Shown: positions 3,632-21,007 of the stretch, piece after piece
How positions within the stretch are numbered: position 1 is the stretch's first letter
Layout: each line of letters begins with the position of its first letter
Origin: an uncultured archaeon
GTDB lineage: Archaea; Asgardarchaeota; Lokiarchaeia; Sigyniarchaeales; SOKP01
Assembly (NCBI GenBank): GCA_964447495.1
Contig: CAYUTF010000032.1
Location: 1-26,172, forward strand
Reading direction: 5' to 3'
Length of the DNA: 26,172 bases
Program-made: the position numbers and the translations under genes
Notes under the pieces: model-generated
What the model was told of the DNA's origin: nothing
The model's input: only the letters and a program-made list of their open reading frames with translations
The model's database searches: none

Positions 3632-3703
3632 GACAAGCACATCCAAAAGGCAAGAATGTTTAATATATGATAGATATTAATCTTTTGTTAAATACTTCTA
3701 CTT

Positions 3704-4171
3704 ATGATAAAGTTCCAAGATATCAAAAATATCAGCAATAATTTTGATAAAGAGTTTTGTAAGGCAATTAACGAGAGTTCTGAATATAGAATCGCTGCAA
3801 AAGGGTGGGGTATCGATTTTGAAGGAGGCACGCTATACATTTTTGAAGCTTCTGGAGAAGTTATAGATAATATAAAAATTTTTATGGACTTAAAAGATGG
3901 GATGTGCCTAGGTGTAAAATTGCTTGGACCAAATGATGATATCCCCAAACCAGCAATTTTAACTATAAAAGCACCGTTTCATGTGTGGAAAAAGATTCGT
4001 TTAGGACAACTAAAATTAATGAATGCTATAATGAGTGGACATGTGAAAATTGAAGGTAATATAAGTTTGGTTATGAGATATTCTAAGGCAGCGATGATCT
4101 TAGGAAATATTGCTAGAAAGCAGAAGTTTTTTAATGATCTTTTGAATATTTATACTCTTGATGACTTTTAG
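3704..4171 (+). CDS. SCP2 sterol/lipid-binding domain protein
   Basis: SCP2 signature 'WKKIRLGQLKLMNAIMSGHVKIEGNISLVMR'. Confidence 0.8.
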   Translation: MIKFQDIKNISNNFDKEFCKAINESSEYRIAAKGWGIDFEGGTLYIFEASGEVIDNIKIFMDLKDGMCLGVKLLGPNDDIPKPAILTIKAPFHVWKKIRLGQLKLMNAIMSGHVKIEGNISLVMRYSKAAMILGNIARKQKFFNDLLNIYTLDDF

Positions 4172-4173
4172 AG

Positions 4174-4800: not shown

Positions 4801-4842
4801 AAAATCAGACTAGAAAAAGGTTATTAGAAATTAGATTTCAAT

Positions 4843-5814
4843 TTAGTGTGTACATTCCCACATATAATGTCCATATTTTTGTTTGAATTCTTCTGCAAAT
4901 TCATTTGTTTTCGGTCGTATGAATTCATAACCATCTTGAATGCATTCATAATTAACAGGAAGTGATCCTAATACTTCACCATCAACTTGGCATACATAAG
5001 GCTCATCTTCAAACGTCCTCATTTCTACTCTTACTCTCTTACTCTGATATTCTTGAATATCAGGATGTGGGAGTAACGAGGCATTATACATTCTTCTGAA
5101 TTGCCTAGCTAACTTAACCTTGTCAATATTTACAATGCTGATATCAAAAAGACCGTCTTCAATACTAGCTCTTTGGCAAATAAACATACCCCCACCATAT
5201 GCTCCAGAAAGCCCCACAGCGGCAAGATTTGCTTCACCTTCGTATGTATCATTATCCATTTTCACGATGATCTCTTGGTTTTCCCATTCTTTTAATAAAG
5301 TGAGAATTATCATATTATAATCTTTTTCTTTATCTTCATTAGATCTACGAGCGACTTCGCTATCAAAGCCTTGTGAGCCTATTCCTAAAAAATAACGTTT
5401 CGTACCGTCATCTCTTTTAGCATAACCAATGTCACATTTACTAGAGTGACCTTCAGCAATAATTTCACAAGACCGCTTGATATCTGCTCTATAACCTATT
5501 GCTGCAGGAATATCATTACCCGAGCCCATAGGTATAAAGCCTACAAGAGCGTTTGTGTTTGAAATAATGGTTCCGTGCATTATTTCATTACACGTTCCAT
5601 CCCCTCCAGCAGCAATTACGCGATATCCTTCCTTAGCTAATTGTGTAGCAAGTTCGATGGCATGTTGGGCATATTCTGTCTGAAAGAGCTTGTATGATAT
5701 CTTCAAATCATCTAAACAATTACACATATACTCTATATCCTTTTCCGTCTGCTCTGCCTTTCCAGCAATAGGATTATATATGATTGCATGATCTGCTTCC
5801 ATACTTTTCACCAT
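4843..5814 (-). CDS. Diacylglycerol/lipid kinase family (YegS/DagK-like)
   Basis: YNPIAG, AGGDGT, PMGSGND, YGGG, DGLFD, QVDGE. Confidence 0.9.
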   Translation of the reverse strand: MVKSMEADHAIIYNPIAGKAEQTEKDIEYMCNCLDDLKISYKLFQTEYAQHAIELATQLAKEGYRVIAAGGDGTCNEIMHGTIISNTNALVGFIPMGSGNDIPAAIGYRADIKRSCEIIAEGHSSKCDIGYAKRDDGTKRYFLGIGSQGFDSEVARRSNEDKEKDYNMIILTLLKEWENQEIIVKMDNDTYEGEANLAAVGLSGAYGGGMFICQRASIEDGLFDISIVNIDKVKLARQFRRMYNASLLPHPDIQEYQSKRVRVEMRTFEDEPYVCQVDGEVLGSLPVNYECIQDGYEFIRPKTNEFAEEFKQKYGHYMWECTH

Positions 5815-5963
5815 AACTTTTAAATTTTTAAAATAAGTATTAATTTTATTTATAATATTTTAAACTATGATCTATTTAAAAGTTATTTAAATAACAGAGA
5901 CTTCTCGCTAATAGAAAGGACAAATCGAAAGAGATAGGGAAAAATAGCGATGGAGGGGTTTTC

Positions 5964-6497
5964 TTAACTTTCGTGCCAAATACAGCCACAACCATCGCAA
6001 CTGTATTTTTTTCCATAAATTTTTGGATAATGGCTAATTATATAATTTTTATCTATAGATTCATGGATCTTAAAAAAACTTTCATCATTTCCACAAATTG
6101 GACAATATCTTCTTCCTTCAGTTTTAGGAATAGTTAATATTTCACCCGTGTATCTAAATAAACTATCCTCTGTAATCGAATTAATTAGTTTTCTTTTTTT
6201 TAAGAAATTCTTTATTATGGGTTCAATCTCTTCATTTAAGGTATTATCTTCATTTTTTAATGAATGATGTTCATGATCAAAAGAACTTTGTTCAAGACTT
6301 TTTAGGTAACTTTTCGCTATCGGTTTAATTTCAACCTTCTTGGGTAATCGGTTATATTTTTTCTGGAAATTTTCGATAAAATCTTCAACAAATATTTTTT
6401 CAATTGAAAAACCTTCATTCTCAATTTCTTTGATAATATCTCCTACGATATATTCTTTTATAAATGGACCTTCCATATACAAGAGGTTTTCCCTCAC
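5964..6497 (-). CDS. Hypothetical protein with C-terminal zinc ribbon
   Basis: 177-aa ORF with CPICG...CDGCG at the C-terminus; GTG start is uncertain. Confidence 0.6.
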   Translation of the reverse strand: MRENLLYMEGPFIKEYIVGDIIKEIENEGFSIEKIFVEDFIENFQKKYNRLPKKVEIKPIAKSYLKSLEQSSFDHEHHSLKNEDNTLNEEIEPIIKNFLKKRKLINSITEDSLFRYTGEILTIPKTEGRRYCPICGNDESFFKIHESIDKNYIISHYPKIYGKKYSCDGCGCIWHES

Positions 6498-6900
6498 CCT
6501 AATAATTTAAATGAATCATAAAATCTTCATTTACTCAATAGTTCTTGATTAAGATATTATTCTTTAAAATATTTTCTTAATTTTAGTCGGATATTTTGGA
6601 ATAGAAAATTAATAATTTGGAATTGAATATGTTAAATCTGGAAATTTAATCTTTAAGTTTTCCAAAATCCTATATATAATATAACCTATTACTAAAGATG
6701 TATATTTACTTAACTTTCCCCTAAAAAAATCATACTCTCAATTTACTTTCAGCTATTCACATACAGTTGGGTTATTTATTTTTAATTTTAAACTCCATAA
6801 TCATACTTAACTATAAATCTAAACTCATTTGATAGGATTAACCAATATTTATATTGATTTTTTTATTTATTTAGTCAAAGAAGAGAATATAAATAGTATT

Positions 6901-7545
6901 ATGGAAAGAAATCATAAAAAGACTAAACAAGAAGATCAAAAGGAACCTAAAAGCCGGAAAAAAATAATATATGCCGTAATAATGATATCCATTGCTTTTT
7001 TGGGCTCTTTTTTACTCTATTTCATACTACAAATAACTCTAAATACGGAAACTCCCATAGTTGTGGTTGAGTCTGGCTCAATGGAACCGGTTATAAGTCG
7101 AGGAGACTTGTTAATAGTGAGAGGTGTTCCCCCAAGTGAAATTCGGAATGGTACTATAGAAGATAAAGATGGAGATATTATTGTTTTTGACGCTCATGGC
7201 GTATGGTCAAATCCTCCAGAAGAACCTATAGTCCATAGGGTCGTAGATAAGAAATTTGAAGGCGGTATCTGGCAATTTAGAACCAAAGGTGATGCAAACT
7301 ATTTAGTAGATGAAGGATGGGTACCTCAAGAAAACATATTCGGAATTGTGGTTTTTAAGATACCCTTGCTCGGTTGGGTAAAAATTTTCTTAACAGAATC
7401 AGGTTTATTAATACCATTATTAATAATTATTTCAATTCTACTTATCGTTAGTATTATAATTGACATTTATAAAAAAGAAGAAACAAAAGCTAAAGATAAA
7501 GATAAAACTGAGGAATTTAAGAACCAAAATAATAAGTTTGAGTAA
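6901..7545 (+). CDS. Signal peptidase I, archaeal/Sec11 (S26B) type
   Basis: TM followed by VVESGSMEP (catalytic Ser), IVHRV (His) and TKGDAN..D, then a C-terminal TM. ATG 6901 is preferred over TTG 6829. Confidence 0.92.
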   Translation: MERNHKKTKQEDQKEPKSRKKIIYAVIMISIAFLGSFLLYFILQITLNTETPIVVVESGSMEPVISRGDLLIVRGVPPSEIRNGTIEDKDGDIIVFDAHGVWSNPPEEPIVHRVVDKKFEGGIWQFRTKGDANYLVDEGWVPQENIFGIVVFKIPLLGWVKIFLTESGLLIPLLIIISILLIVSIIIDIYKKEETKAKDKDKTEEFKNQNNKFE

Positions 7546-7908
7546 TATAGAATCACTTTCCATCTTATCTTCATACTTTAAATAAAAAAAATATATAAAA
7601 AAACAATTACGAGGTATTATTGGTTTAGCTTCAATATTTCTTTCCTGGTTTCTGTTTTATCTTGGAGTACAATTAAAAGGTATGTAAAATTCGTAATCCT
7701 TTTTTTTTTTTAATTACTTGCAAAAATGCACTTTTTTTTAAGAATTATCTCGAAAAATTATTAAATTGATAATAAAATTTTTATGAAGAAAAAAATTCAC
7801 ATAAATGGTAATACTCGTAATTTGAAATTACGATTATACTTTAATGCAGAAATACAAAACTACAAAAAAAAATCAATTATAAACAAAAAAAACTTAGAGG
7901 TTATATAC

Positions 7909-8187
7909 ATGGCAAAAGAAGCAAATAGCGTTTTTGTTGGCCGTCGCCCAACTATGAATTATGTTATGGCGACAATGATGATCCTCAATAAAGGTGAAGA
8001 ATGCACCGTAAAAGCTCGTGGCAGAGCAATCTCTCATGCAGTCGATGTGTGTGAGATTTTAAGAAATCGATTCTTAAAGGGAACTGAATATAGAGACATA
8101 AAGCTTTCCACAGAGCAACTTGAGGGTGAAAACGGGCAAAATAATAATGTGTCAAGCATTGAAATTGTACTTGCTCCACCAAAGTAA
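7909..8187 (+). CDS. albA: DNA/RNA-binding protein Alba
   Basis: VFVGRRPTMNYV, VKARGRAISHAVDVCE, VSSIEIVL. ATG 7909 follows RBS GAGGT and gives 92 aa. Confidence 0.95.
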   Translation: MAKEANSVFVGRRPTMNYVMATMMILNKGEECTVKARGRAISHAVDVCEILRNRFLKGTEYRDIKLSTEQLEGENGQNNNVSSIEIVLAPPK

Positions 8188-8242
8188 ACTTAGAGAAATA
8201 ATATTCTCTTTCTCTACACTCAAACAAATTAACTAATATTAC

Positions 8243-8260
8243 CTTTTCTTTTTTTTCATT
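8243..8260 (+). terminator. Probable oligo-T terminator after alba
   Basis: T-rich run about 55 nt after the stop codon, as typical of archaeal terminators. Confidence 0.4.
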
Positions 8261-8619
8261 TCATTTGATGGAACTAATTTATACTTATACTACTAAATTC
8301 TAAGAGATGTATTTTCTTTTATAGTAGATATGCGAAAAATACATCAAATGATAATTCTTATTTATTTCATTATTAAATGGTTGATAGACTTCTACAGTTT
8401 TCAATTTTGAATTCATATAAAATTCCATTGAAGATAAAGTTAAGAACCTTATGAAAACTCAGATAATTAAAAAAATGTGATTTAGAATAGAATTTTCAAA
8501 AAGATTTAAAAACTCATATGTTAATAATTTATATTAATAACAAATGAAATTCCTTTAAATTTAATCAGATTAGAATTAAGGTATAAAAATAAAAAATTAT
8601 TAAAAGAGGATGATGAGTA

Positions 8620-8808
8620 ATGGCAAAAGTAGAACCCCTATTTGTAAAATCTAAAGTACGGGAATTTATAAAGGCTAAGGAATGTAACACTTCAAGTGGT
8701 GTTCTTGATGGAGAAGCTCTTAATAAAATAATTATAGAAATGCTTGATGAAGCAGTTAAAAGAGCAAAAGCTAATGGTCGTAAGACAGTAAAAGCAAGAG
8801 ATTTATAA
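8620..8808 (+). CDS. Short histone-fold protein (alpha3-truncated type)
   Basis: 62 aa ending in 'AVKRAKANGRKTVKARDL' (RKT..D histone signature) with no extended alpha3. RBS GAGGA lies upstream. Confidence 0.85.
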   Translation: MAKVEPLFVKSKVREFIKAKECNTSSGVLDGEALNKIIIEMLDEAVKRAKANGRKTVKARDL

Positions 8809-9010
8809 AATTAATAAATACACAATTTTCTTCAAATTTTTTTTTTATTCTCTAAGAGTAAGTATTTTATTTTTGAATTTTCATATTCCATTTCTGATTT
8901 TAAAATTGTATTACACATTTCTTTCATATGTAATTTGAATGACCCTATAGATTTAAAAAGCCTAACGTTATATGCATCATAGAAAACCAAACTATTAACA
9001 AACATAAAAA

Positions 9011-9538
9011 ATGGGAAATCCATTTATATTTCTTGTAATAGTTGGCATTATATTCTTATTGATTTTAATCCTGATATACTTTGGAATTAAAAAGTATAAA
9101 AATAAAAGTAAATTTAACAAGAAAACAGAGAAAATTAGCACATTTAGATGTCTAGATGGACATTTAGTTAAGTCTAAAGGTGAATTAATTATAGATAACT
9201 ATCTTTTCTTCCTTGGAATTCAGCACATCTATGAAAAGGTCATCAGTTTACGGGGAAATAAAGTTAAATGTGATTGGTATTTACCGAAATACGATATATA
9301 TATAGAATATTGGGGTTATTATGGGAAGCGATACAATAAAAGGAAAAAAGAAAAACTAAGACTATACCAAAAAGAAAATATAAAAATTATTTCCATTGAC
9401 AATTCTATGTTTTATGATATTTACACAAATATAAATAAAATGTTAAAAAAATATATTAAAAACTATAAAGAGAATTATTGGAAAGCTGAAAAAAAATATT
9501 GCTACAATTGTGGTAAAGAATTAGATGAAAGATTTTAA
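9011..9538 (+). CDS. Membrane-anchored PD-(D/E)XK nuclease-like protein
   Basis: N-terminal TM; 'DGHLVKSKGELIIDNYL...YE...CDWYL...YIEYWG' pattern; C-terminal CYNCG. Confidence 0.6.
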   Translation: MGNPFIFLVIVGIIFLLILILIYFGIKKYKNKSKFNKKTEKISTFRCLDGHLVKSKGELIIDNYLFFLGIQHIYEKVISLRGNKVKCDWYLPKYDIYIEYWGYYGKRYNKRKKEKLRLYQKENIKIISIDNSMFYDIYTNINKMLKKYIKNYKENYWKAEKKYCYNCGKELDERF

Positions 9539-9546
9539 TTACAGTT

Positions 9547-10731
9547 CTATTTCAAAAAGTCCTCTAAATGATTATAAACCTTTTCTAAAGTCTCTAATTC
9601 AGGTAAAAAAGTCAGTCGAATATGACCTTCACCATACTTGCCAAAACCAGAACCATATACAGAACATACTCCTGTTTCCTTAAGTAAATCGATGGCAAAC
9701 TCCTTATCATTTTTCCATTTATTAAATTCTTTTAAATCAACTTTAGGAAATAAATAAAAAGCTCCGCTCGCATTAACGCAACTAATACCTTCTATCTGGC
9801 GCAATCGTTTATAAGAATAATCCCTCCTTTCCTTTAATGTTCTAACCATTTCAGATGTATGGTTATTCTTTCTCTTGAAAATCTCTATCGCTGCATATTG
9901 TGCTATCGTACTCGCGGATAATCTAGCACGAGCTAATTTTGCGATACCATCCTTAAGATCTGCTAATTTATTTTCTGGATCATGATAATACAAATATCCT
10001 AATCTCCAACCAGTAACTAGATGTGCTTTTGAAAAACCATTCATTCCAATTATCGGGACATCCTTGCTTAAAGATGCAGGTGAAACATAATCTCTCTCAT
10101 AGGTAATTTGATCATAAATCTCATCAGAAAGTATGGGTAAGTTATACTCACCAGCTAAATCAATTATTTCTTTCACTTTTTCTTTGCTAAATAGTCCGCC
10201 TGTAGGATTATTCGGGGAACATATTAATATTGCTTGGGTCTTTTTAGTAATCTTTTTTCTTAGATCATCGATATTAGGTTCCCAATCATCTTGTTCATTA
10301 AGTTCATATTCCACAGGGACACCATCGTAAAATTTTGTATTATTGATATATAAGGGATAAGTTGGGCCAGGAATTAGCAGTTCTTCTCCGTTCTCAATCA
10401 TTGCTGCCAAAATAAAGTATATTGCCTCAGTTACACCTGTAGTGATCACAATATCGTCGCTGCTTACATCAAGATTATCTTTTTTCTTTAAAAATTTGCT
10501 AATCTCCTCCCTTAATTCAATTACACCGATTGAATCGGCATAAAAGTTTTTTCCACTATAACTTGCGTTAGCTAAAGCTTCTGATATAAAACTTGGGGTT
10601 CTAAAATCATACTTTAGAGGATCTCCAATATTAAGATGAAAGACCTCCTTTCCCGTTTTTTTTACTTGCTCTGCTATTACTGCGATATCTCTTATCGCAT
10701 ATTCTATGTCTCTTACCCTTCTAGATACCAT
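9547..10731 (-). CDS. PLP-dependent aminotransferase class I/II (alanine aminotransferase-like)
   Basis: IEYAIRD, LNIGDP, SPNNPTG, SDEIYD, GFSK (PLP Lys), TGWRLG, HIRLTF. Confidence 0.92.
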   Translation of the reverse strand: MVSRRVRDIEYAIRDIAVIAEQVKKTGKEVFHLNIGDPLKYDFRTPSFISEALANASYSGKNFYADSIGVIELREEISKFLKKKDNLDVSSDDIVITTGVTEAIYFILAAMIENGEELLIPGPTYPLYINNTKFYDGVPVEYELNEQDDWEPNIDDLRKKITKKTQAILICSPNNPTGGLFSKEKVKEIIDLAGEYNLPILSDEIYDQITYERDYVSPASLSKDVPIIGMNGFSKAHLVTGWRLGYLYYHDPENKLADLKDGIAKLARARLSASTIAQYAAIEIFKRKNNHTSEMVRTLKERRDYSYKRLRQIEGISCVNASGAFYLFPKVDLKEFNKWKNDKEFAIDLLKETGVCSVYGSGFGKYGEGHIRLTFLPELETLEKVYNHLEDFLK

Positions 10732-10941
10732 AAACAGTCACTTGACTTTATACAATAATAATGAAATGATTTAATCAGTAGATTTAAATTATATAATTAA
10801 ATCTGTCATTTAAACTTAAATCTCAAATTACCTTTTATATATAAAAAGAATTATATTTTAAAGCATATCTTCAAAAAGACTATTTGATTACTTAAGAAAA
10901 TAAAGAGATTGTAAAAAGAGGAGTAAATTTTTTAGAAATTT

Positions 10942-11187
10942 CTATCTCATTTTAGATTGTAAATTATTAATTAGGATTTTAAGATACTGAGCATTGTAGG
11001 AATTCTTATTTTCAATCTCTCGATAAGCTTTTAAATAATCGTTTAATTGTTTTTCTTCTTCAATCAATTCTAATTCAAGGTATCCTTCCGAGAATTCTTT
11101 GATAAATTCATTTTTTTCACTCTTATAGGGATAATGCTCTAAATCTCCTACCACATTTACCAATATTTCCATTTTTTTCACTTCCAT
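10942..11187 (-). CDS. Small helical protein homologous to the central part of the 15483-16097 product
   Basis: FSEGYLELELIEEEKQLNDYLKAYREIENKNSYNAQYLK aligns without gaps to YAMGYLYEEIVEKQELQNELFEEYKNIDNKESYKGLSLK. It has its own conserved promoter. Start is GTG 11190 or ATG 11187. Confidence 0.7.
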   Translation of the reverse strand: MEVKKMEILVNVVGDLEHYPYKSEKNEFIKEFSEGYLELELIEEEKQLNDYLKAYREIENKNSYNAQYLKILINNLQSKMR

Positions 11188-11210
11188 CACTTTTTTAATG
11201 AGTTTTAACT

Positions 11211-11293
11211 CTAAGTAAATTATTATTATCTAAGAATTTAAAAAATTTGATAAGAAAAATTATGGTACTTTTGACAAATTAATTTTTCAAAAT
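11211..11293 (-). promoter_or_regulatory. Promoter/operator copy B (TTTAAA box with TTTGAYAA sites)
   Basis: Ungapped similarity to 16143-16225. Imperfect palindrome TTTGACAA-N6-TTTTCAAA at 11270-11291 and a half-site at 11246-11253. Confidence 0.65.
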
Positions 11294-11359
11294 CAGAATT
11301 AAACAAAAAAAATTATTAAGATCTTTTTTTTAAAAAATAGGAGATTAAAAAAAAAAACC

Positions 11360-13609
11360 TTATCTGTAAATTTCCTCAGGAGTTTCTTTTAATGACTTTT
11401 GATAGGACATTGCGGCTTTATCTGCGCCTTTCTTGATGATTTCTATAGCCTCTTCAAAATCATTTTGAGTTATTTTTAATTTTCCATAGGATTGAGCATC
11501 TAAAACATTTAAATTTAATTCATATATTCCTCGTCTTATTGCTAAAATCGTTGCTTCTTCACAAATTGCTTTAATATCTGCTCCAGTATAACCCTCAGTC
11601 ATAATTGCTAATTTATTTAGTTCGGTATCATCTCCTAATGGACGTCCATTGAGATGTATAGCAAATATTTTTTCTCGTGATATTTGATTTGGTACGGGAA
11701 TTTCAATATGTCTACCAAATCTTCCTGATCTTAAAATTGCAGGATCAAGCAAATCTGGTCGGTTTGTAGCTGCAATTAATATGACGTTTTCTATCTTCTC
11801 TAAACCATCCATTTCTGTTAGCAACTGAGCAACAACTTGTTCTTCAACTCGTGAACTAGAAGAATCAGACCTACGTGCTGCAATCGCATCAATCTCATCA
11901 AAAAATATGATGCACGGTGCTGCAGCTCTTGCCTTTCTAAAGGTTTCTCTAACTGCTTTTGCACTTTCACCAACCCATTTAGATAAAAATTCAGGTCCTT
12001 TTATCGAGATAAAATTTACTTCAGTCTCATGAGCCAAAGCTTTTGCTAATAAAGTTTTTCCCGTTCCTGGAAGACCAAAAAGCAATATACCACATGGAGG
12101 TTTAGATTTCATGTACTCAAAAAGTTTTGGATATTTAAAAGGCCATTCAATAGTCTCCCTCAATTGCTGTTTAGCCATTTCTAAACCACCTATATCATCC
12201 CAAGTCTCTGTAGGCTGGGTTATGAGGACCTCTCTGAGTGCTGATGGCTCAACACTTGCAAGTGCCTCTAAAAAATGAGTAATTTTTATTTTTAGATTAT
12301 TTAATATCTCTTCTGGTAATGGAGTATCTAAATTGATATTTGGAACAACTTCTCTAATTGCTAGCATAGCTGCTTCTTTACATAATGATTTAATATCTGC
12401 GCCAACAAAACCATGAGTTTTCTCAGCAATTAAATCAAGATCTACATCTTTCTCTAATGGCATTCCTCGAGTATGGATAAGTAAAATTTCAAGCCTCCCC
12501 TTTATACTAGGAACTTTTATTTCAATCTCTCGGTCAAATCTACCTGGTCGTCTTAAGGCAGTATCAATATTATTTACTTGATTTGTGGCTCCAATTACTA
12601 TTATTTCCCCTCTCCTTTTTAAACCATCTAATAGGGACAATAATTGAGCTACAACGCGAGATTCTACTTGAGCCTTTCCATCCTCTCTCTTTGATGCTAA
12701 TGCATCCAATTCATCCAAAAATATAATTGATGGAGATTTTTCTTCCGCTTCTTTGAATATATTCCTTAAATTTTCTTCACTTTGGCCAAAAAACTTGCTC
12801 ATTATCTCAGGACCACTTACACTTATAAAGTGAGCGTCGGTTTCATAAGCAACCGCTCTTGCTAACAATGTTTTTCCTGTACCTGGAGGACCATATAATA
12901 AAACTCCTTTTGGTGGCTCTATACCAATTCTTTCGAATAATTCTGGATGTCTTATAGGTAATTCAATAATCTCTCTCACTTTTTGTATAGATTCTTCTAA
13001 TCCTCCGATATCTTCATACGTTACTTTATTACTTATCTCCATTAGTTTCTCTTTGATATTGCTTATCGTTTCATATTTGTATTTCGGCTGTTTTTCTACT
13101 GATTGTGTTAGTGACTTTTCAGAAAAATCAATATTAGTATTTAGACTAATTTTAACAGCTTCTAATTTGGGTGAATAATCAACAACAATAAGATCAATCC
13201 TGTGAGCCATAGCATAGAAACTCAAATTATCCCCTTTAGTAAATACCCTATTTTCTAATTTCCTAGTAAGAGTTTGAGGATCACGTGGAATTAAGGTGTC
13301 ATTTAGAGCAGCAAACGTTACTTTTTCTGCAGTTTGCGCTTCAATCTTCTTAATTTCGACAAAGTCATCAATTGAAATCTTTAAATTTCGTCTAAGAGAT
13401 GGATCCATTCTTATAATCCTTTTTCCTTTATCATTTATTTTTCCACTTGCAAGTCTTGCAACAGTATTCCTATCTGATAAGGAATGACTAATTTTTATAA
13501 TATCTCCGACTTTGAGATTTAAAAAATTTGAAATTTCAGGATCAATTCTTACTATACCTCTTCCAGCATCTTCTTTAAACGCATCTTTAATTCTTAGCTT
13601 TTCATCCAA
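11360..13609 (-). CDS. cdc48: Cdc48/VCP (VAT) AAA+ ATPase
   Basis: N domain ([10 protein letters not shown]), D1 [22 protein letters not shown]2 [14 protein letters not shown], and a C-terminal HbYX-like 'IYR'. TTG start follows GGGTGA. Confidence 0.93.
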
Positions 13610-13706
13610 TATCGATTCACCCTATTCTGTTTTTATTTTCTTAAAAAAAAAAATTTAATTAAAAAAATCTTGATTGTTACTATTTTTACTCAATTTTTTG
13701 AATATA

Positions 13707-14693
13707 TTACTTTAATAAAAGTTCTGTTGCTATATCAAAAGCTATATTATAATCGAAATTTTTTTTACCACGAGTCAATGCGGCTTCTTTAAAAATTTCT
13801 TTCTCAACATTGTATTTAAGTTTTCCAATATCAAGTGCGCCAATTCCATATATTCCCGGATAAAACTCTGTATTATTCATACTAGGATCCATCCCTTCTA
13901 CTCCATAGGGAGGCACTAAATTAATATCAACTACAACTTTATTCGGTGATAATTTCTCCATCACTTCTTTTGAAACCATTTGCACTCCCGCTTTTCCTAC
14001 AGACCAGATAATATCTGCATCTTTTATTATTTCATAATGGTCATCCTCTGAATTTGCTGCAGCTCCTAAAATTTTGTTAGCACCCTTTCCTGCTTTACTT
14101 GTTAACAATTTTGCCAAATCCTTCACATAACCCTCTCTTCGTGATGTGATTATTACATTAGCATTATGTTTCGAAGCAATTAAAGCAGAAATTTGTCCAA
14201 CTGGTCCTGTACCGCCTAAAACAATCACATTCTTTCCCTTCAGGCCTTGATGTCCATGTCTTTTTATGGATTTAATAGTCTTAGCGACAATAGCTGCTGC
14301 AGTAGTATGTGATCCTCTAGGGTCGATTATGATTGGAACTTCAAATGGTGGTACTAATGCATTTATTACATTCTCTGCTATTTTATCGCATTCTTCAACA
14401 TCGGAACCTCCAATAAAAAATACCGTTGGTGCTCCGACTTTTCTTGAAAACATTGCATCTTGGACAAGTTTAACAACGTGATCTGCCCTAATTTTGCAGT
14501 ATGGAATTACTACATCAAATCCTGCATCATATCCCATATTCGTATCAAAAGGGGAACAATATTCGTCTGTATCAAAAAAATAACAAATTTTATCTGATTT
14601 TTCCTTTTTTTTAATAATGATAGGGGTTAATTCGATAATTGATTTTTTTCCCAGCATATTCTCAACTTCTTGATTATTATTATTTTGCACCAT
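13707..14693 (-). CDS. NAD(P)-dependent methylene-H4MPT/H4F dehydrogenase (MtdA/B/C family)
   Basis: SPFDTNMGYDAGFD, LVQDAMFSR, FIGGSD, PPFEV..DPRGSHTTAAA, LGGTGPVG, DINLVPPYGVEG, GIGALDIGKLKY. Confidence 0.85.
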   Translation of the reverse strand: MVQNNNNQEVENMLGKKSIIELTPIIIKKKEKSDKICYFFDTDEYCSPFDTNMGYDAGFDVVIPYCKIRADHVVKLVQDAMFSRKVGAPTVFFIGGSDVEECDKIAENVINALVPPFEVPIIIDPRGSHTTAAAIVAKTIKSIKRHGHQGLKGKNVIVLGGTGPVGQISALIASKHNANVIITSRREGYVKDLAKLLTSKAGKGANKILGAAANSEDDHYEIIKDADIIWSVGKAGVQMVSKEVMEKLSPNKVVVDINLVPPYGVEGMDPSMNNTEFYPGIYGIGALDIGKLKYNVEKEIFKEAALTRGKKNFDYNIAFDIATELLLK

Positions 14694-14733
14694 TTTTTCA
14701 TCATCTCTTTTCTTAACTTTACTCCTATAAAAT

Positions 14734-15465
14734 TTATTTCAAAAGAGCTATTTCAATCTCATCTTCAAGTGCTTTTTCTACTTCCAGGGATTTTATTCTC
14801 CTCTTTATCTTTACTTGTTCGGTTTGAATACCTAGATCTGAAGCCAATTTTTCAATACCCGCAAAATGGCGAGTATCACAGATAAATATCCCTTTTATTT
14901 TCTTATCTTCAATGTCTCTCGCTAAATTTAAGATATTCATCATCATCCAAGCCTCCCTAACATTATATCGTACCTTATCTTCCTCTTGTTCATAATCTTT
15001 TTGCATGTATTCTTTCCAAAGAACAAGTCGTTGGAAAAAGTCATCATTTTCAAAAGCTTTACCTTTTATCTTTAAAATTTGCGTAATCTTTTTTTCTAAA
15101 CTTTTAATCATTTCTCGATGTTCGCTTAAGGCAGCAAAAAGATAATTCTCAGCATTTTCCGAAATGTCTGTTTGCTTAAATGGTATATCTTTTCTTTCAA
15201 ATAATGCTTTTAAAGGATCCACTGAATTAAGGGCGTTATTCCAAAAATTTGGTCTCTCTTCTAATACTAAATGAGGCTTATACTTCTCAATTAATATTTC
15301 CATCAGTTCGATATATTCTTTAGAAATTAAATGAAGATTCCAAACGATATTATCCTTCATGGTTTCAGGAACTTCAAACCACCAGTCTATTGGAAATTCG
15401 CTTTCAACCAAAATCAATTTTAACATTTTATTTTTTAATGGTTTTAATTCTAATACTTCAGGCAT
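14734..15465 (-). CDS. Hypothetical protein, possible TraB/GumN/ChaN-superfamily fold with helical insert
   Basis: 'YKPHLVLEE', 'REAWMMMNI' and 'IFICDTRHFAGI' resemble the TraB-type E, R..xM and GxxH.G motifs. RBS GGAGGT. Confidence 0.55.
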   Translation of the reverse strand: MPEVLELKPLKNKMLKLILVESEFPIDWWFEVPETMKDNIVWNLHLISKEYIELMEILIEKYKPHLVLEERPNFWNNALNSVDPLKALFERKDIPFKQTDISENAENYLFAALSEHREMIKSLEKKITQILKIKGKAFENDDFFQRLVLWKEYMQKDYEQEEDKVRYNVREAWMMMNILNLARDIEDKKIKGIFICDTRHFAGIEKLASDLGIQTEQVKIKRRIKSLEVEKALEDEIEIALLK

Positions 15466-15482
15466 TTTTCTTTTACCTCCTT

Positions 15483-16097
15483 TTAAAATATAATATTTTG
15501 AATAGTATGTTTTTTATTATAAAATACAACCTTTACATCTAAATCTCTTAAATATTGACTTACTTGAGGACAAATGTCTTCACATATGTCTTTTTGGATG
15601 AAATGAATGAAGGAAACGGTTTGATTGTTAAAATTTTTTACTAAATCTAACATTTTCTTTACTATCCATTGCGGTCTCAGTGTCAAACTTAAATAAATTT
15701 CTTTTTGTTGGATTTCTTCTCCCAACATATCAATCCAGTTTTTTAGACTTAAACCCTTATATGACTCTTTATTATCAATATTTTTGTATTCTTCAAACAG
15801 TTCATTCTGTAATTCCTGTTTCTCAACAATTTCTTCGTATAGATATCCCATTGCATACTCTGGAATATCTAACTGATAATAAGGAATATTTAAATCACTT
15901 AATGCTTTAGCAAACGGTGTTTTATGAAATAAACTTATATCCACTTGAAAATCTACGGTAACAAAATTGATTTCTCTTTCTCTAAGAAAGTCAACCAATT
16001 TAGATGTATTTTCATCTTGAAAATATTCTGCATTTTCTTTTGAAATCATATATGTAATTACTTTTTTTTTTACTTTCTTTAATTCTAATACTTCCAT
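15483..16097 (-). CDS. Hypothetical protein, paralog of 14734-15465
   Basis: Shared N-terminus EVLELK; NIPYYQLDIPEYAMGYL vs DIPFKQTDISENAENYL; RPQWIVKKMLDL vs REAWMMMNILNL. RBS GAGGT. Confidence 0.7.
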   Translation of the reverse strand: MEVLELKKVKKKVITYMISKENAEYFQDENTSKLVDFLREREINFVTVDFQVDISLFHKTPFAKALSDLNIPYYQLDIPEYAMGYLYEEIVEKQELQNELFEEYKNIDNKESYKGLSLKNWIDMLGEEIQQKEIYLSLTLRPQWIVKKMLDLVKNFNNQTVSFIHFIQKDICEDICPQVSQYLRDLDVKVVFYNKKHTIQNIIF

Positions 16098-16142
16098 TTT
16101 CTAACAAACCTCTCTAATTATAGATTTTAAAGAAATACATTA

Positions 16143-16225
16143 CTAAGTAAAAAAACATATGGTCGGAATTTAAAGAATTTGACAAGAAGAATTTTATCAA
16201 ATTTGATAATTTTAATTATCAAAAT
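16143..16225 (-). promoter_or_regulatory. Promoter/operator copy A for the minus-strand operon
   Basis: TTTAAA box at 16169-16174; perfect palindromes TTATCAAATTTGATAA (16194-16209) and TTTGATAATT-TT-AATTATCAAA (16202-16223). Confidence 0.7.
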
Positions 16226-16340
16226 TCTAATTTGAGGAGACAAGATAGTCTTATTAAAAATGAACGTTATATTGATCAATATTCTACATACTATGATCGA
16301 AATGCAACAAACTTATATTTGAGAAAATCAATATTATCAT

Positions 16341-16380
16341 AGAGATAAAAAAAATTGTCAAAATATCATTTTTAATAAAT
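16341..16380 (+). promoter_or_regulatory. Degenerate operator copy plus AT-rich TATA-like box upstream of the HTH-HdrA gene
   Basis: agaGATAA-N6-TTGTCAAA (16341-16362) followed by TTTAATAAAT. Confidence 0.45.
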
Positions 16381-16405
16381 TAAATTATAAATAAGGGGGA
16401 GCTAT

Positions 16406-18955
16406 TTGATGGATATTTATTCGATATTATCGCATCCGTTTAGGCGTAAAATATTAAATTTACTCGAAAAAGAAGGTTTTATTCCGTACACTGTCTTAAT
16501 GGACAAATTAGGGCTTGATCAGACGGGACAACTTAATTTTCATTTGAAAAAGTTAGGAAATTTAATCGATAAAGATAAAAAATCATATTTCCTCACTGAA
16601 GACGGTAAACGTATAATTCGCATTATGAATTTAAACAAGAGAGTATTATCTGGGGAAGATATAGAATATTTAAATAATAATGCAACTGAGATTAACAGGA
16701 TTGGCGTGATTTTATGCAATTGTAACACGGAAATTTCGAATGTAATAAACATTAATGCACTTCAGTCCTATCTTGAAAAGATTAATAATGTTGTATCAGT
16801 TCAAATTTTTGATAATCTCTGTCAAGAAAAAAACTTAGACAAAATTACCAATTGGATAAAAGAAAATTTTATTAATAAAATCACAATTGCGGCATGTTCT
16901 CCTAAAACTCACCAACATATATTTGAAAGAATCTTTGAGGGAATAATAGATCGTTCTAATATTGAAATAGCAAATATAAGAGAAAATTGTTGTTGGGTCC
17001 ATTATTCTAGTGAGAAACATATGGATTCCCTCATTACTCTAAATAAAGCTCAATTACTCATTGAAGCTGCTATAGAACGAGTTTCTTTGCAAAGAGAAGT
17101 TAAACTTAAACGTGTAGAAGTCGAAAAAAGTTGTGCTATAATAGGAGGAGGGATAGCAGGTATGACCTTAGCTTTAAATTTATCAAGAGCAGGAATAAGA
17201 GTGTACATTATCGAAAAATCACCAACATTGGGAGGTAAAATAGCAAGATGGAGTCGGATTTCTAATATTGGAGATTGTTCAATTTGCTTTATGTCTGAAC
17301 TAATTGGAGAGATAGTGAAAGAAAAAAATATTGAAATATACACTAATACAGAAATAGAGAATGTTTCTGGAGAAGTAGGCAATTTTTCAATAGATTTAAT
17401 TCAAAAACCGCGGTTTGTGGATGAATCTAAATGTACTGGATGTAAACAGTGTATAGAAGTATGTGGACGAGAACAAAAAAATCAATATGAATATGGTTTA
17501 ACCAAAAGGAAAGTTATTTATATTCCATTTCAAAATGCTTATCCTTATGTTCCTATTATTGATGAAATCGATCATGAAACATGTCTTGATTGCAGAATAT
17601 GCGAACGCGCTTGTATCAATAAAGCCATTAATTTAAATCAACAGGCTGAACAAATCAAAATCCGAGTGGGAGCAAAAATTATAGCGATTGGTGCCGATAT
17701 TTCTTTCGATTTAGAAGAATATTCCTATAATCCATATAACAATATTATAACCTCAGCAGAATTTGAAAGAATGCTTTCTTCAGATGGATTTACTGGAGGT
17801 AAAATATCCAAATTAAATGATAAGGGTAAAGTTAATTCAATTTCAATTATACAAGAGGTTGGTCCGTCAAATTACTTATGTGAATACTCAGATATATTAG
17901 CACTAAAATACATTGATGCTATAAAATTACAAAATCCAAATTGTGAAGTTAATGTGTTTTACGATTTAAGTAAATTAACAATTAAAGGTGAAATTCTTTT
18001 GAAATCAACAAATCAAAATTTTATTTATGCCAATCATGTTTCAATAGAAACAAGAGAAGATATTAATTATGTGATTGCCGATTCAATAGAATTTCCAAGT
18101 GATTTGATCATTTTGAATTTGGAATTGATCCCTAATAAAGATATAGCAAATCTAAGAAAATTTATGCACCTTACCATTAATGATAAAGGTTTTATGAGTG
18201 AGGAAACCTTAGCGTCTGGAATATATGGTATAGGGACAATATATGGTCCATTAAATTATAATTCTACAATTTCAAGCTCGAATAATGTTGCATTGAAAAT
18301 AATATCTTTATTATCAAAAGATTATTTATACACGGAATTTAGTGGTATTGAAATTAATCATGATAAATGTGGCTTGTGTGGGTTATGTGTGAATTCTTGT
18401 GATTTTAACGCTATTAATATAGAAGTAGATAAGATTAAAATTGATAAATTCAAATGTAAAGGATGTGGTACTTGTGTTGCTATTTGTCCTACAAATGCGA
18501 TTGAAATGAATATTAATACTTCTGAGAAGATATTTAAAACACTTGAAATTTTTTCTAAATTTAAAAGTAAACCGAAGATTATTGCTTTTTGTTGCCAATC
18601 ATGTGGGTATGCCGCAGCAGATGATGCTGGGTTAAAAAAGATACTCTATAACCCTAATACTTTCATTATTAAAGTTCCCTGTACTGGACGAGTTGATACA
18701 GAATTCATTTTAAAATCTTTTGAACTTGGTTTTAATGGAGTAATGATTTTGGGTTGTAGTAAGAATTCCTGTCGCTATATTAATGGCATTGAAAAAGCTC
18801 AAAAAAAGGTACATCTCTTAAAACAAATTTTAGAACCAAATAAGGCTAAAAGAATTATTATTAAAAGTATAACCGCGATTGAGGGACAAAAGTTTGCAGA
18901 TATTTCAAATAAATTTTATGAACAATTAAGTAGAGGGATAAAAAATAATGCCTAA
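16406..18955 (+). CDS. wHTH (ArsR/DUF-like) - HdrA-like flavoprotein - MvhD triple fusion
   Basis: N-terminal 'ILSHPFRRKILNLL...GQLNFHLKKL...YFLTEDGK' wHTH; HdrA N-domain CNC, AACSP, ANIRENCCWVH; IGGGIAG FAD motif; four CxxCxxCxxxC ferredoxin motifs; MvhD FCCQSC, VPCTGRV, GCSKNSC. Start is TTG 16406 or ATG 16409. Confidence 0.88.
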   Translation: MMDIYSILSHPFRRKILNLLEKEGFIPYTVLMDKLGLDQTGQLNFHLKKLGNLIDKDKKSYFLTEDGKRIIRIMNLNKRVLSGEDIEYLNNNATEINRIGVILCNCNTEISNVININALQSYLEKINNVVSVQIFDNLCQEKNLDKITNWIKENFINKITIAACSPKTHQHIFERIFEGIIDRSNIEIANIRENCCWVHYSSEKHMDSLITLNKAQLLIEAAIERVSLQREVKLKRVEVEKSCAIIGGGIAGMTLALNLSRAGIRVYIIEKSPTLGGKIARWSRISNIGDCSICFMSELIGEIVKEKNIEIYTNTEIENVSGEVGNFSIDLIQKPRFVDESKCTGCKQCIEVCGREQKNQYEYGLTKRKVIYIPFQNAYPYVPIIDEIDHETCLDCRICERACINKAINLNQQAEQIKIRVGAKIIAIGADISFDLEEYSYNPYNNIITSAEFERMLSSDGFTGGKISKLNDKGKVNSISIIQEVGPSNYLCEYSDILALKYIDAIKLQNPNCEVNVFYDLSKLTIKGEILLKSTNQNFIYANHVSIETREDINYVIADSIEFPSDLIILNLELIPNKDIANLRKFMHLTINDKGFMSEETLASGIYGIGTIYGPLNYNSTISSSNNVALKIISLLSKDYLYTEFSGIEINHDKCGLCGLCVNSCDFNAINIEVDKIKIDKFKCKGCGTCVAICPTNAIEMNINTSEKIFKTLEIFSKFKSKPKIIAFCCQSCGYAAADDAGLKKILYNPNTFIIKVPCTGRVDTEFILKSFELGFNGVMILGCSKNSCRYINGIEKAQKKVHLLKQILEPNKAKRIIIKSITAIEGQKFADISNKFYEQLSRGIKNNA

Positions 18956-19694
18956 ACTTTTAATTCATTCATTAACAGGTTGCAGTGGTTGCATCGCAAG
19001 CTTGATGGCTTCTGAGATTTTTCCAAATTTACTTGAACGAGTAGAAGTAATCTCTTTTCCCTTTATATATGATGAAGAGAATATGGAGGATTGTGATATT
19101 GCTTTAATCGAAGGTTGTGTGTCTCAAAAAGCACAAATCGCGATTTTAAAAGAAATAAGATCAAATGCAAATAAAGTAATTGCTTTAGGTACTTGTGCTT
19201 CTTATGGTGGAATTCTCAATCTTTCGAAAGAAAAAAAAGCATATGCCATTTCTGAGTACATAGAAATAGATGGGGTAATTCCTGGATGCCCTCCACCGTC
19301 AAAATTACTTGGAAATAGTATAATGAGATTAATTGAAAATAAAAATTTGGAATTATCAATGAAAAACCTATGTCATAATTGTCCACTAAATGACCTAACT
19401 GATAATACATTTAACACTTTAATCAAAAAAGTTGACTTTTCTTCTGATCCTACAAAAAAAAACGATAAGAATAAATGTTTTCTTCGAAGAGGGGTCTTAT
19501 GTTTAGGTCCAATTACTCGTGAGGGGTGTGATCATACATGTATCAATAATGCTGTACCCTGTGAAGGTTGTTTAGGTCCAGCATCCAAAGATTATACCTC
19601 TAATTTAGTAAACTTACTAAGTATGTTAGATATTTCCAAAGATATAGAATTAGATAGAAGTATTTTTTTTCGTTTCTCTAAACCAAAAACTTAA
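18948..19694 (+). CDS. mvhG: [NiFe]-hydrogenase small subunit, group 3 (MvhG-like)
   Basis: GCSGC, EGCV, GTCASYGG, PGCPP, CHNC, CF...CLGPITREGC..TC...PCEGC. It overlaps the previous stop codon. Confidence 0.85.
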   Translation: MPKLLIHSLTGCSGCIASLMASEIFPNLLERVEVISFPFIYDEENMEDCDIALIEGCVSQKAQIAILKEIRSNANKVIALGTCASYGGILNLSKEKKAYAISEYIEIDGVIPGCPPPSKLLGNSIMRLIENKNLELSMKNLCHNCPLNDLTDNTFNTLIKKVDFSSDPTKKNDKNKCFLRRGVLCLGPITREGCDHTCINNAVPCEGCLGPASKDYTSNLVNLLSMLDISKDIELDRSIFFRFSKPKT

Positions 19695-19705
19695 GGTGAT
19701 TTAAC

Positions 19706-21007
19706 ATAGATAAAATTATAGATGTATGCAAAAGGGTTGAAGGTCATGGCACAGTTGATTATCTAATTCAAAATGAAGCGATATCCCATGTAGAATTCAA
19801 AATAAATGCATTTAGGGGGTTTGAAAACATTCTTGCTGGAAAAAACTTATTCGATATCCCCAAGATTGTCTCAAGAATTTGTGGATTATGTCATACGTCT
19901 CAAACAATTGCAAGCTGCAAAGCTATTGAAAGTTTATTTGAGATAACTCCAAATGCTTTCTCTCTATATTTAAGAAGAGTATTAATGTGTGCTGAATTGA
20001 TAAACTCACATATAATGCATTTCTTTTTCCAAACTTTACCTGATCTAATGGAGATATTTAAAATGGAAAATAATCTGAAAAATCCCTCTAAATTAATTAA
20101 TTTTGATCTGGAATTAACTAAAAATGTATTTAATCTAATAAAAGCATCTAAAGAAATTAATGAACTATTCGGAGGTCGAAGTATTCACTTAATTACAATA
20201 GTGCCGGGAGGAATGTTATACACTCCCTCTCAAAAGAATTATATTTTTCTTCAAAAATTATTGCACAAAATAAGAGTGGAAATTGAATCCATTATTCATA
20301 AATTTATTTCATTGTTCTCGGAATTTCAAACACCAGTAGAATATAATTTATCCAATCCATTTCTAATTGGATTATATAATAATAGTAATTATGACAGATA
20401 TGATGGTAATATTAGAATAAGCAATTGTAGTAATTATGATGAAACCTTCGAGAAAGAAAATTATTCCAACTATTTTGATAAAAACATTAGTCTATTTGGC
20501 ATTAATTTTAAACAAAATAATGAAGACATCGTATTAACAGGTCCGTATTCTCGATATTGGTTACATAATTGTCATAAAAATGAAATAATAGGTGAATTTT
20601 TAAATTCATTTGATAAAGCTTGGAAAATATCGTTAATTTTTACAAGTTTTTTACAATTGGTTGAAATATATAATGAAATTCAATATTGTTTGGAAAATTT
20701 AGATGAATATCAGCTAAATAGCAAATTAAAAATTCCAACCTTAAATAAACTAAAAAAAGTAGATGGAATCGGTATAATTGAAGCTCCAAGAGGGTTTCTC
20801 ATGCATCGCTATCAGTTAAACAAGAAAAACAATGTTGAAAAAGTAAAATTATTCATCGCAACAGAAATAAATATCCCATTAATAAATATGATGATTGAAA
20901 ACTATGCTCAAAAACAATATGAAAAGAAAGATATGGATATAATTAAAAAAAATATACAAATAATGATACGACTTTTTGATCCATGTATTTCTTGTGCTAC
21001 GCATTAA
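19706..21007 (+). CDS. mvhA: [NiFe]-hydrogenase large subunit, group 3 (MvhA-like); ATA start, 433 aa
   Basis: In-frame extension upstream of the tracked ATG 19985 encodes RVEGHG, RGFE and L1 'RICGLC'. EAPRG and L2 'DPCISCATH*' are present. RBS AGGTGA sits 6 nt before ATA 19706, with an in-frame TGA at 19697. Confidence 0.85.
   Translation: MDKIIDVCKRVEGHGTVDYLIQNEAISHVEFKINAFRGFENILAGKNLFDIPKIVSRICGLCHTSQTIASCKAIESLFEITPNAFSLYLRRVLMCAELINSHIMHFFFQTLPDLMEIFKMENNLKNPSKLINFDLELTKNVFNLIKASKEINELFGGRSIHLITIVPGGMLYTPSQKNYIFLQKLLHKIRVEIESIIHKFISLFSEFQTPVEYNLSNPFLIGLYNNSNYDRYDGNIRISNCSNYDETFEKENYSNYFDKNISLFGINFKQNNEDIVLTGPYSRYWLHNCHKNEIIGEFLNSFDKAWKISLIFTSFLQLVEIYNEIQYCLENLDEYQLNSKLKIPTLNKLKKVDGIGIIEAPRGFLMHRYQLNKKNNVEKVKLFIATEINIPLINMMIENYAQKQYEKKDMDIIKKNIQIMIRLFDPCISCATH

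Follow-up and report, generated by a model that had tools for sequence, protein, structure and literature searches.

A winged helix-HdrA-MvhD fusion and a conserved palindromic operator at a [NiFe] hydrogenase locus of Asgard archaea

The 26,172-nt stretch analysed in this study (contig CAYUTF010000032.1, hereafter the window) comes from an uncultured archaeon of the Asgard order Sigyniarchaeales and encodes an 849-aa protein in which a winged helix-turn-helix (wHTH) domain is fused to HdrA and MvhD. The fusion gene heads a plus-strand operon with mvhG and mvhA, which encode the small and large subunits of a [NiFe] hydrogenase, and faces a minus-strand cluster that includes unk204, unk243 and mtd, the latter coding for a methylene-tetrahydromethanopterin (methylene-H4MPT) dehydrogenase. 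A palindromic element, referred to below as the operator, lies in the promoter regions of both. The domain architecture is conserved in distant Asgard lineages, as are the operator and its placement. With confidence a little above even, we favour the view that the fusion is a bifunctional 'trigger enzyme' resembling PutA, a working redox enzyme that would also regulate a local set of genes. The genome of origin (3.81 Mb, about 30% GC, 98% complete) is labelled G000, and the window is positions 1-26172 of its contig C32; the L, G, C and f numbers are this analysis's labels for loci, genomes, contigs and families.

Architecture and conservation of the fusion protein

16409..18955, plus strand: wHTH-HdrA-MvhD fusion gene (Pfam, NCBIfam, PDB sequence matches 5odc_A and 5odc_D, and 120 orthologues at 64-74% identity)
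16409..16660, plus strand: wHTH DNA-binding-type domain, about residues 2-85 (AlphaFold, Foldseek, PDB profile search, isoelectric point and conservation)

The reading frame of the fusion is open from 16406 to 18955. Orthologues start with MDIY, so the true start is ATG 16409, ahead of which lies the Shine-Dalgarno sequence GGGGGAG at 16393-16401. Pfam assigned residues 3-73 to the wHTH family DUF7347 (PF24038; E 7.6e-11, 42.5 bits against a cut-off of 27.6 bits) and residues 725-842 to FlpD/MvhD (E 6e-35), and found flavin adenine dinucleotide (FAD) and Fer4/ferredoxin signatures of the HdrA type in the core. Among the sequences of solved structures, HdrA (5odc_A, positions 4-647 of 654) aligned with residues 97-714 at E 2e-104, and MvhD (5odc_D, positions 5-126 of 140) with residues 722-841; the protein is therefore a complete HdrA and a complete MvhD with about 96 extra residues at the N-terminus. 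The best NCBIfam model was HdrA2 (NF040770), positions 1-769 of 777 of which matched residues 98-842 (E 1e-169); the score of 566 bits is under the curated cut-off of 1100 bits, and the domain order agrees. Across the 106 of 120 listed orthologues that are 840-860 aa long, cysteine is at least 95% conserved at 29 of 33 positions, and the FAD motif GGGxAG at residue 247 is likewise kept in orthologues. The fusion of wHTH, HdrA and MvhD is confirmed as a real feature of the locus.

The best 120 database matches of the fusion are 815-855 aa long. PF24038 was found in 113 of them, the other seven (815-819 aa) probably being shortened by start-codon calls. A profile of the wHTH matched 316 of 400 Asgard genomes at E 1e-5; the weak matches are other, shorter DUF7347 proteins, and the strong ones lie in ~850-aa frames of families f1, f4, f5, f6, f19, f21, f28 and f31. 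By these matches the ~850-aa fusion is present in at least eight Asgard families and is no local oddity. It is absent from three single-contig genomes of family f3, in which the best matches are paralogues of 30-34% identity starting near residue 90. Directly after the fusion gene, mvhG and mvhA follow in all ten close loci that reach far enough and in 17 of 19 distant loci. One of the two exceptions (L078) is a sequence that stops just after the gene; the other, L082 (G279:C1, genome 63% complete), encodes a 646-aa wHTH-HdrA protein with no MvhD part and has no mvhG or mvhA within 5 kb downstream. The genes unk204, unk243 and mtd are divergent to the fusion operon in the window, in families f21, f4 and f1-g2 and in seven of the 11 close loci. 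Families f19 and f31 have unk243-mtd on the same strand, after mvhA, and its position inside the hydrogenase gene string points to metabolic coupling.

The AlphaFold model of the wHTH, built from 12 orthologues, has a pLDDT (predicted local distance difference test) of 82 and the ArsR topology alpha1-alpha2-alpha3-alphaR-beta hairpin-alpha5, with helices at residues 2-9, 11-23, 28-35, 40-53 and 65-81 and strands at 54-57 and 60-63. Its top Foldseek neighbours in the PDB are all DNA-binding regulators, namely the ArsR-family proteins 3f6o and 1y0u and NolR (4omz/4omy, with DNA), with CadC, Rv0081, YodB, BigR and PagR as further neighbours (template modelling (TM) scores 0.57-0.71). A PDB profile search returned 1y0u of Archaeoglobus fulgidus, titled 'arsenical resistance operon repressor, putative' (E 0.004). 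The domain has an isoelectric point of 9.5, a recognition helix TGQLNFHLKKL and a basic wing DKDKK, and is the best conserved segment of the fusion, with a mean column conservation of 0.88 vs 0.78-0.83 in the other domains among the same 106 orthologues. The recognition helix TGxLN[FY]HL[KT][KQ]L and an N-terminal HPxRxxIL are kept in 19 of 19 distant sequences, with overall identity down to 35%. By fold and by profile the domain belongs to the ArsR/SmtB-type winged helices, and it is a predicted DNA binder. No cysteine occurs before residue 104 of the fusion, so the wHTH lacks the usual ArsR metal/thiol sensing site, and a signal acting on the domain, should there be one, has to reach it through the attached enzyme or through a partner.

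Placement and distribution of the operator

The operator core, GAYAA-N6-TTRTC, is palindromic, and its half-sites lie 11 bp apart from centre to centre, about one helical turn. It is found within two kinds of promoter element, which occur in the window as follows.

16166..16223, no strand assigned: class A promoter element of ~58 nt, upstream of unk204 (nhmmer E 5e-9 to 3e-12)
11234..11291, no strand assigned: second class A copy, upstream of mini82 (palindrome 11270-11291, one mismatch from the core)
16303..16372, plus strand: class B promoter block before the fusion gene (sole genome match of the class B model, E 3.3e-7)

The first class A element contains a TATA-like TTTAAA, the 17-mer AATTTGACAAGAAGAAT, a palindrome with an 8-nt spacer at 16178-16201, and a perfect 22-bp palindrome at 16202-16223 that holds an operator core at 16205-16220. 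Besides the two copies of the window, 14 more were found in eight relatives, all in one orientation. They sit upstream of minus-strand unk204, mini82 or a selenocysteine (Sec)-containing paralogue of hdrA (hdrA-Sec), and their consensus is AATTTAAArAATyTGATAAsAAAAAT-N9-TTTGAyAA-N6-TTrTCAA. The class B block contains a TATA-like CTTATATTTG (16312-16321), a degenerate palindrome (16319-16339) and an exact core GATAAAAAAAATTGTC (16344-16359). In nine relatives class B consists of a canonical TTTATATA box with TTTGACAA-N6-TTATCAT immediately after it and precedes the first gene of the plus-strand operon, either frhB-like or the fusion; the form at 16303-16372 is degenerate. The nhmmer models of both classes gave no further match in the 3.8-Mb genome. 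A third exact copy of the 17-mer, AATYTGAYAAGAARAAT at C76:2059-2075, lies between GATase-like and CitMHS transporter genes, has no palindrome and is probably unrelated.

The exact core occurs 32 times in the 3.81 Mb of the own genome, and two of these sites (16205 and 16344) fall within the 308-nt spacer of the two operons, where 0.0026 would be expected. Among close relatives 24 exact cores were counted in 200 kb, 21-22 of them within class A or class B elements. The distant loci have 15 exact cores in the 9,522 nt upstream of the fusion gene, distributed over 10 of 18 loci, and only 10 in the remaining 231,173 nt, that is ~36-fold rarer, although such enrichment ratios overstate the statistical weight because related genomes are not independent. 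Five of these 10 lie between mvhA and unk243, and two in the divergent promoter of the frhB-like gene and hdrA-Sec. The core is also present in GC-rich genomes (L066 and L067, GC 0.54-0.60).

The operator also varies with the presence of the fusion. An operator/promoter element was found upstream of unk243-mtd in all five fusion-bearing relatives of the L028 type, and within 3 kb upstream of it in none of five sister-genus genomes (92-97% complete) that keep unk243-mtd and have no fusion. In L084, which has neither hdrA nor mvh genes at this place, a free-standing wHTH gene of 90 aa lies 5 nt ahead of unk243-mtd, and a one-mismatch operator is located ~170 nt upstream; this layout is the classic one for an ArsR-type repressor. 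Four observations support the inferred link between the wHTH and the operator: the operator is confined to the locus, the cluster has no second conserved regulator, invariance of the recognition helix and invariance of the core extend over the same range of lineages, and a split form exists in L084. Within the 26-kb window, no DNA-binding protein is encoded besides the fusion and an Alba gene.

The original prediction, made from the window alone, had described the fusion followed by mvhG and mvhA on the plus strand, and a palindromic site shared by the facing promoters and the region before the HTH gene. The Pfam and 5odc alignments, together with an 8-nt overlap between the end of the fusion gene and the start of mvhG, agree with the former, and the two class A elements and the further exact core at 16344-16359 with the latter. 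The survey of architecture and synteny across Asgard genomes that it had proposed also turned out in its favour, since a DNA-binding-type domain on HdrA-MvhD and a palindrome linking the hydrogenase and facing operons are conserved together across distant families.

The proposed circuit and competing explanations

Comparative genomics gives the regulon idea good support; the role of the wHTH as the operator-binding protein, the direction of its control and any response to redox state or H2 are predictions from sequence. HdrA is a dimer in the solved complexes; in the fusion such a dimer would pair two N-terminal ArsR-type winged helices, and the pair would bind the palindromic GAYAA-N6-TTRTC. 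Archaeal repressors usually bind just after the TATA box. The class B operator lies directly after the TATA box of the fusion's own operon, and this repressor-type position would give autorepression. In class A the operators abut the upstream side of the TATA box and TFB recognition element (BRE) of the unk204/unk243-mtd operon, where a bound factor might recruit TFB/TBP or else block them; in relatives, operators placed in this way precede the Sec-containing hdrA paralogue. The input could be the redox state of the FAD/iron-sulfur (Fe-S) chain or, equally, the assembly of the subunit into the complex, and the amount or state of the enzyme would feed back on the transcription of the hydrogenase and methylene-H4MPT dehydrogenase genes. 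The conserved predicted targets are the fusion's own operon and unk243-mtd. The original prediction had named both Mtd and Cdc48 as targets; Mtd is retained, unk243-mtd being conserved, and Cdc48 is dropped, as its gene is adjacent in one of 30 related loci (L024).

A bolder version, which we put forward tentatively and regard as rather doubtful, holds that the hydrogenase-HdrA complex itself is the transcription factor. The redox state of the flavin/Fe-S chain, set by electrons from H2 or ferredoxin, would be relayed to the wHTHs of the HdrA dimer; the complex would then bind the operators or come off them, and thereby switch both the hydrogenase operon and the Wood-Ljungdahl step catalysed by methylene-H4MPT dehydrogenase. 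If true, this would be a kinase-free, one-protein circuit from H2/redox to transcription, ancient in Asgard archaea.

Several observations weigh against a trigger enzyme that reads the operator. The Foldseek matches of the wHTH have modest E-values, 2.6e-3 at best. In family f28, which carries the fusion, an exact operator was found in none of three loci and unk243 in none of five genomes; family f5 is without the exact operator in both of its loci. The fusion-less loci may hold a paralogous unk243-mtd copy that was never in the regulon, and G257 keeps a class A element with the fusion not found, on a contig that ends less than 2 kb from the expected gene site. A palindrome model accounts for only part of the invariant class A 17-mer. 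One-mismatch palindromes occur genome-wide at chance level (14 seen vs 14-21 in Markov controls), so that the regulon is not extendable beyond this locus. Two further points of this kind, a structural wHTH in the same enzyme class and a second HTH in the same neighbourhood, bear on the alternative considered next.

The wHTH may instead be a structural docking module for a partner such as unk204 or unk243-Mtd, with a separate, unlinked transcription factor reading the palindromes, which we consider unlikely. A wHTH can be purely structural in this enzyme class, as in the structure of class II benzoyl-CoA reductase, where the wHTH of the MvhD-like adaptor BamF contacts BamI (bioRxiv 10.64898/2026.04.10.717634). 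Relatives carry in the same neighbourhood a second redox protein with an embedded HTH (MvhD-HTH_DeoR-Fd-FrhB). Moreover, in L084 the wHTH adjoins unk243-mtd even without hdrA/mvh, which a protein-protein partnership would also explain, and in f19 and f31 unk243-mtd is part of the hydrogenase gene string. However, the near structural neighbours of the wHTH are all DNA-binding regulators, and its best conserved residues are those of the recognition helix and basic wing. Confinement of the operator to one locus of the genome makes a distant global factor less likely, the cluster contains no further conserved regulator gene, and a 90-aa ArsR-like gene heading an operon, as in L084, is the usual repressor layout. 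The embedded-HTH protein itself is 638 aa long, combines MvhD, an internal HTH_DeoR-type HTH, ferredoxin and FrhB N/C parts, and is encoded at L028:1401-3317 (minus strand) and at C5:21763-23784 in the own genome; it is reminiscent of the BamF adaptor.

Whether the attached module is an enzyme or a sensor depends on the hydrogenase subunits and their surroundings.

18948..19694, plus strand: mvhG, [NiFe] hydrogenase small subunit, MvhG/VhuG-like (PF01058; NCBIfam VhuG, E 1.5e-39)
19706..21007, plus strand: mvhA, [NiFe] hydrogenase large subunit (RICGLC and DPCISCATH motifs; best PDB match MvhA 5odc_F)

The open frame of the large subunit spans 19700-21007 (435 aa) and retains the four Ni-Fe ligand cysteines in RICGLC and the terminal DPCISCATH. 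It contains no ATG, GTG or TTG start; translation probably begins at ATA 19706, after GGTGA, or the gene has a base error. In relatives the gene has a standard start, for example GTG in L028. The best PDB match is MvhA 5odc_F (E 2e-43), with sulfhydrogenase also among the best, and the NCBIfam matches to ShyA of group 3b (2.2e-45) and to VhuA (2.1e-42) are nearly tied. Traits of group 3c (MvhAG) are present, namely two CxxC Ni-Fe ligand motifs and a gene beside that of HdrA-MvhD. With the regulatory hydrogenases (group 2b) only the missing C-terminal extension is shared; the best matches are to group 3, and no kinase was found in the window. HdrA-MvhD, MvhG and MvhA most likely constitute, as their sequences suggest, a working cytoplasmic group-3 [NiFe] hydrogenase and flavin-based bifurcating (or confurcating) module.

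The original prediction had stated that hdrB/hdrC and a maturation protease are missing from the locus, and had taken the module to be repurposed as a sensor. The first statement holds for the 26-kb window and fails beyond it: an hdrC/B-like gene is located 0.6-1.7 kb after mvhA in six close relatives, with its own-genome orthologue on contig C114, and the own genome has 37 CCG-domain matches and one HycI-type protease, all outside the window. According to the second, the Mvh-HdrA module would have no metabolic role and would be a dedicated H2/redox sensor, electrons from H2 switching the fused transcription factor. This we judge very unlikely. The large subunit does stop at the His of DPCISCATH and so offers a maturation protease no extension to remove, and the aligned 5odc_F runs 25 residues further; regulatory hydrogenases likewise have no C-terminal extension on the large subunit. 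The lack of hdrBC in the window, and a second, Sec-type hydrogenase beside hdrCB and hypDEF that could do the metabolic work, would also fit a sensor. However, all cofactor sites are conserved, which leaves a repurposed sensor unsupported: the full cofactor set (29 of 33 cysteines and the FAD motif) is under strong purifying selection in orthologues 64-74% identical, and neither HdrA nor MvhD is truncated. An end at about that His is also seen in the solved sulfhydrogenase alpha chains, the operon of relatives has hdrC/B-like and frhB-like genes at its flanks, a partner of the sensor-kinase type is missing, and the gene string of f19 and f31 points the same way.

It is hardly credible that the palindromes are ordinary AT-rich promoter sequence, common only through joint duplication of paralogous genes with their promoters and read by no dedicated regulator, since, for all that the genome has ~30% GC, one-mismatch palindromes are at chance frequency genome-wide and the shared upstream sequence of the paralogous unk204 and mini82 could be inherited, the core also precedes non-paralogous genes (the fusion, frhB-like and hdrA-Sec), recurs at 54-60% GC, is ~36-fold enriched in the relevant spacers and has just 32 exact copies in 3.8 Mb.

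The trigger-enzyme reading has partial parallels in known systems. In PutA, reduction of the flavin switches the protein off DNA. The available text of PMC5293562 describes PutA as a flavoenzyme with an N-terminal DNA-binding domain and an autogenous repressor of its own regulon. The fusion is similar in joining an N-terminal DNA-binding domain to a flavin/Fe-S enzyme and in having an operator in its own divergent promoter region. PutA differs in being a proline/P5C (pyrroline-5-carboxylate) dehydrogenase of bacteria (enterobacteria) with a ribbon-helix-helix domain and a switch involving the membrane, whereas the fusion is archaeal and carries an ArsR-type wHTH on the HdrA-MvhD subunit of a [NiFe] hydrogenase. 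With MvhADG-HdrABC of methanogens and HdrA2 of Methanosarcina it shares a full-length HdrA and MvhD and adjacent MvhG and MvhA, but it has the 96-residue N-terminal wHTH, a window without hdrBC and a large subunit without the 25-residue extension of 5odc_F. It is like the ArsR/SmtB repressors (1y0u, NolR, CadC) in fold, in the HLxxL of the recognition helix, in the palindrome of its own promoter and in the free-standing 90-aa form of L084, and unlike them in having a wHTH without cysteine, covalently joined to a redox enzyme of ~750 residues.

HoxBC-HoxJ-HoxA and HupUV-HupT belong to group 2b and signal via a histidine kinase and a separate response regulator. They share with the present system a [NiFe] hydrogenase tied to gene control (predicted here) and a large subunit without a C-terminal extension; the present system differs in its best matches to group 3, in having no kinase and in the placement of the predicted DNA-binding domain on the electron-transfer subunit itself. 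BamF, as the preprint text presents it, is also an MvhD-type adaptor that carries a wHTH in an HdrA-like bifurcating complex, but this wHTH is internal and described as a protein-protein interface, with no operator known.

Models of Asgard physiology, and of the syntrophy at the root of eukaryogenesis, give H2 metabolism a central place. The proposal above would amount to a complete testable circuit, with a regulator domain, operator coordinates and a small conserved set of targets that ties a hydrogenase to a one-carbon enzyme. If true, it would be the first case of a hydrogenase/Hdr complex doubling as a transcription factor, and an archaeal counterpart of trigger enzymes of the PutA type. 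Papers on Asgard metabolism treat the enzyme as MvhADG-HdrABC (e.g. PMC7015854, in the text available), and among archaeal fusions, the accessible part of a published survey names HdrA-MvhD and HdrA-HdrA, with no DNA-binding domain (PMC11237513). No description of a winged helix on HdrA, and none on DUF7347, was found in a full-text literature search, the coverage of which does not extend to paywalled papers and supplements.

The facing cluster and other genes

15483..16097, minus strand: unk204, free-standing paralogue of the Mtd-associated domain, heading the facing operon (matched by neither Pfam nor NCBIfam)
14734..15465, minus strand: unk243, Mtd-associated domain, split from mtd here (profile search, predicted model)
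13707..14693, minus strand: mtd, MtdA/MtdB-type methylene-H4MPT dehydrogenase (PF09176, E 5.7e-24, and NAD(P)-binding domain matches)
11360..13609, minus strand: cdc48, Cdc48/VCP-type AAA+ ATPase (Pfam)
10942..11190, minus strand: mini82, 82-aa protein paralogous to the central part of unk204, under a class A promoter of its own (sequence comparison)

The match to PF09176 identifies mtd as MtdA/MtdB-type and not as the F420-dependent Mtd; it is the single MtdA-type gene of the own genome. The two paralogous unknowns and the mini-paralogue reported in the original prediction were recovered, unk204 being 23% identical to unk243 (E 7e-7) and 34% identical to mini82 (E 5e-4), and their paralogy, judged from these alignments, is weak but real. 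In 17 of 21 hits unk243 and mtd form one open reading frame of 557-638 aa; they are split in the window and in L024, and in P0164 the two domains are fused in the opposite order. A profile of unk243 found 111 relatives among 1.84 billion representatives. The unk243/unk204 family thus appears to be restricted to Asgard archaea and almost always fused to an MtdA-type dehydrogenase, in either order, and this domain without known function makes a second lead. The unk243-Mtd fusions and the gene string of f19 and f31 suggest that H2 is linked metabolically to the methenyl/methylene-H4MPT step.

Residues invariant in the family include E6, W28, S48, R170, E171, W173 and H200 (window; L026-L080). No match to unk243 was found in Pfam or NCBIfam, and a PDB profile search gave at best E 0.098. 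The predicted model of unk243 has a pLDDT of 84; Foldseek returned nothing with a TM score above 0.36, and VIA-align gave SUMT 1v9a (Z 8.8, 99 aligned), CbiL 2qbu (Z 8.7, 114) and ChaN 2g5g (Z 7.8, 146), a Z range rated as common. The idea that unk243 substitutes for methenyl-H4MPT cyclohydrolase was ruled out, the own genome having two Mch genes.

Both cdc48 and mini82 lie beside the cluster only in L024, whose mini82 orthologue has the same class A promoter element. Relatives of the L028 type have the hdrA-Sec and frhB-like genes between the two operons, and the hdrC/B-like gene and a HdrA-HdrA-MvhD gene downstream of mvhA; in the own genome the orthologues of these extra genes are spread over other contigs. 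A 4.4-kb contig titled as a metagenome-assembled genome of the bacterium Deferrimicrobium (L031, DATKTP010000251.1) bears the Asgard arrangement of unk204, unk243-mtd and wHTH-hdrA and is probably mis-binned.

The second hydrogenase locus of the own genome lies on contig C76 (L021) at 3616-12977. Its hypF, hypD and hypE genes, on the minus strand, are followed by genes for a small subunit of 415 aa and a large subunit of 434 aa without the C-terminal CxxC motif. A small open reading frame from 11317 then gives ...DCULSCAAH, with TGA read as Sec, and is thus VhuU-like; hdrC and hdrB come next. This enzyme appears from its genes to be a split [NiFeSe] hydrogenase of the Vhu type in an Asgard genome, which makes the hydrogenase of the window the Cys-type isoenzyme. 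Two in-frame TGA codons are also present in four of 15 MvhD (FlpD) matches of the own genome (C25:14680-15048, C51:4111-4479, C5:23410-23778 and C126:2585-2950), and several hdrA paralogues of relatives show in-frame TGA as well, which points to a sizeable set of selenoproteins.

Elsewhere in the window, a thiolase gene is followed by a DUF35-type gene with an OB-fold and zinc ribbon (684-2382), a pair that we take to be partners of the archaeal acetoacetyl-CoA thiolase/HMG-CoA synthase, and the Alba chromatin gene is located at 7783-8187.

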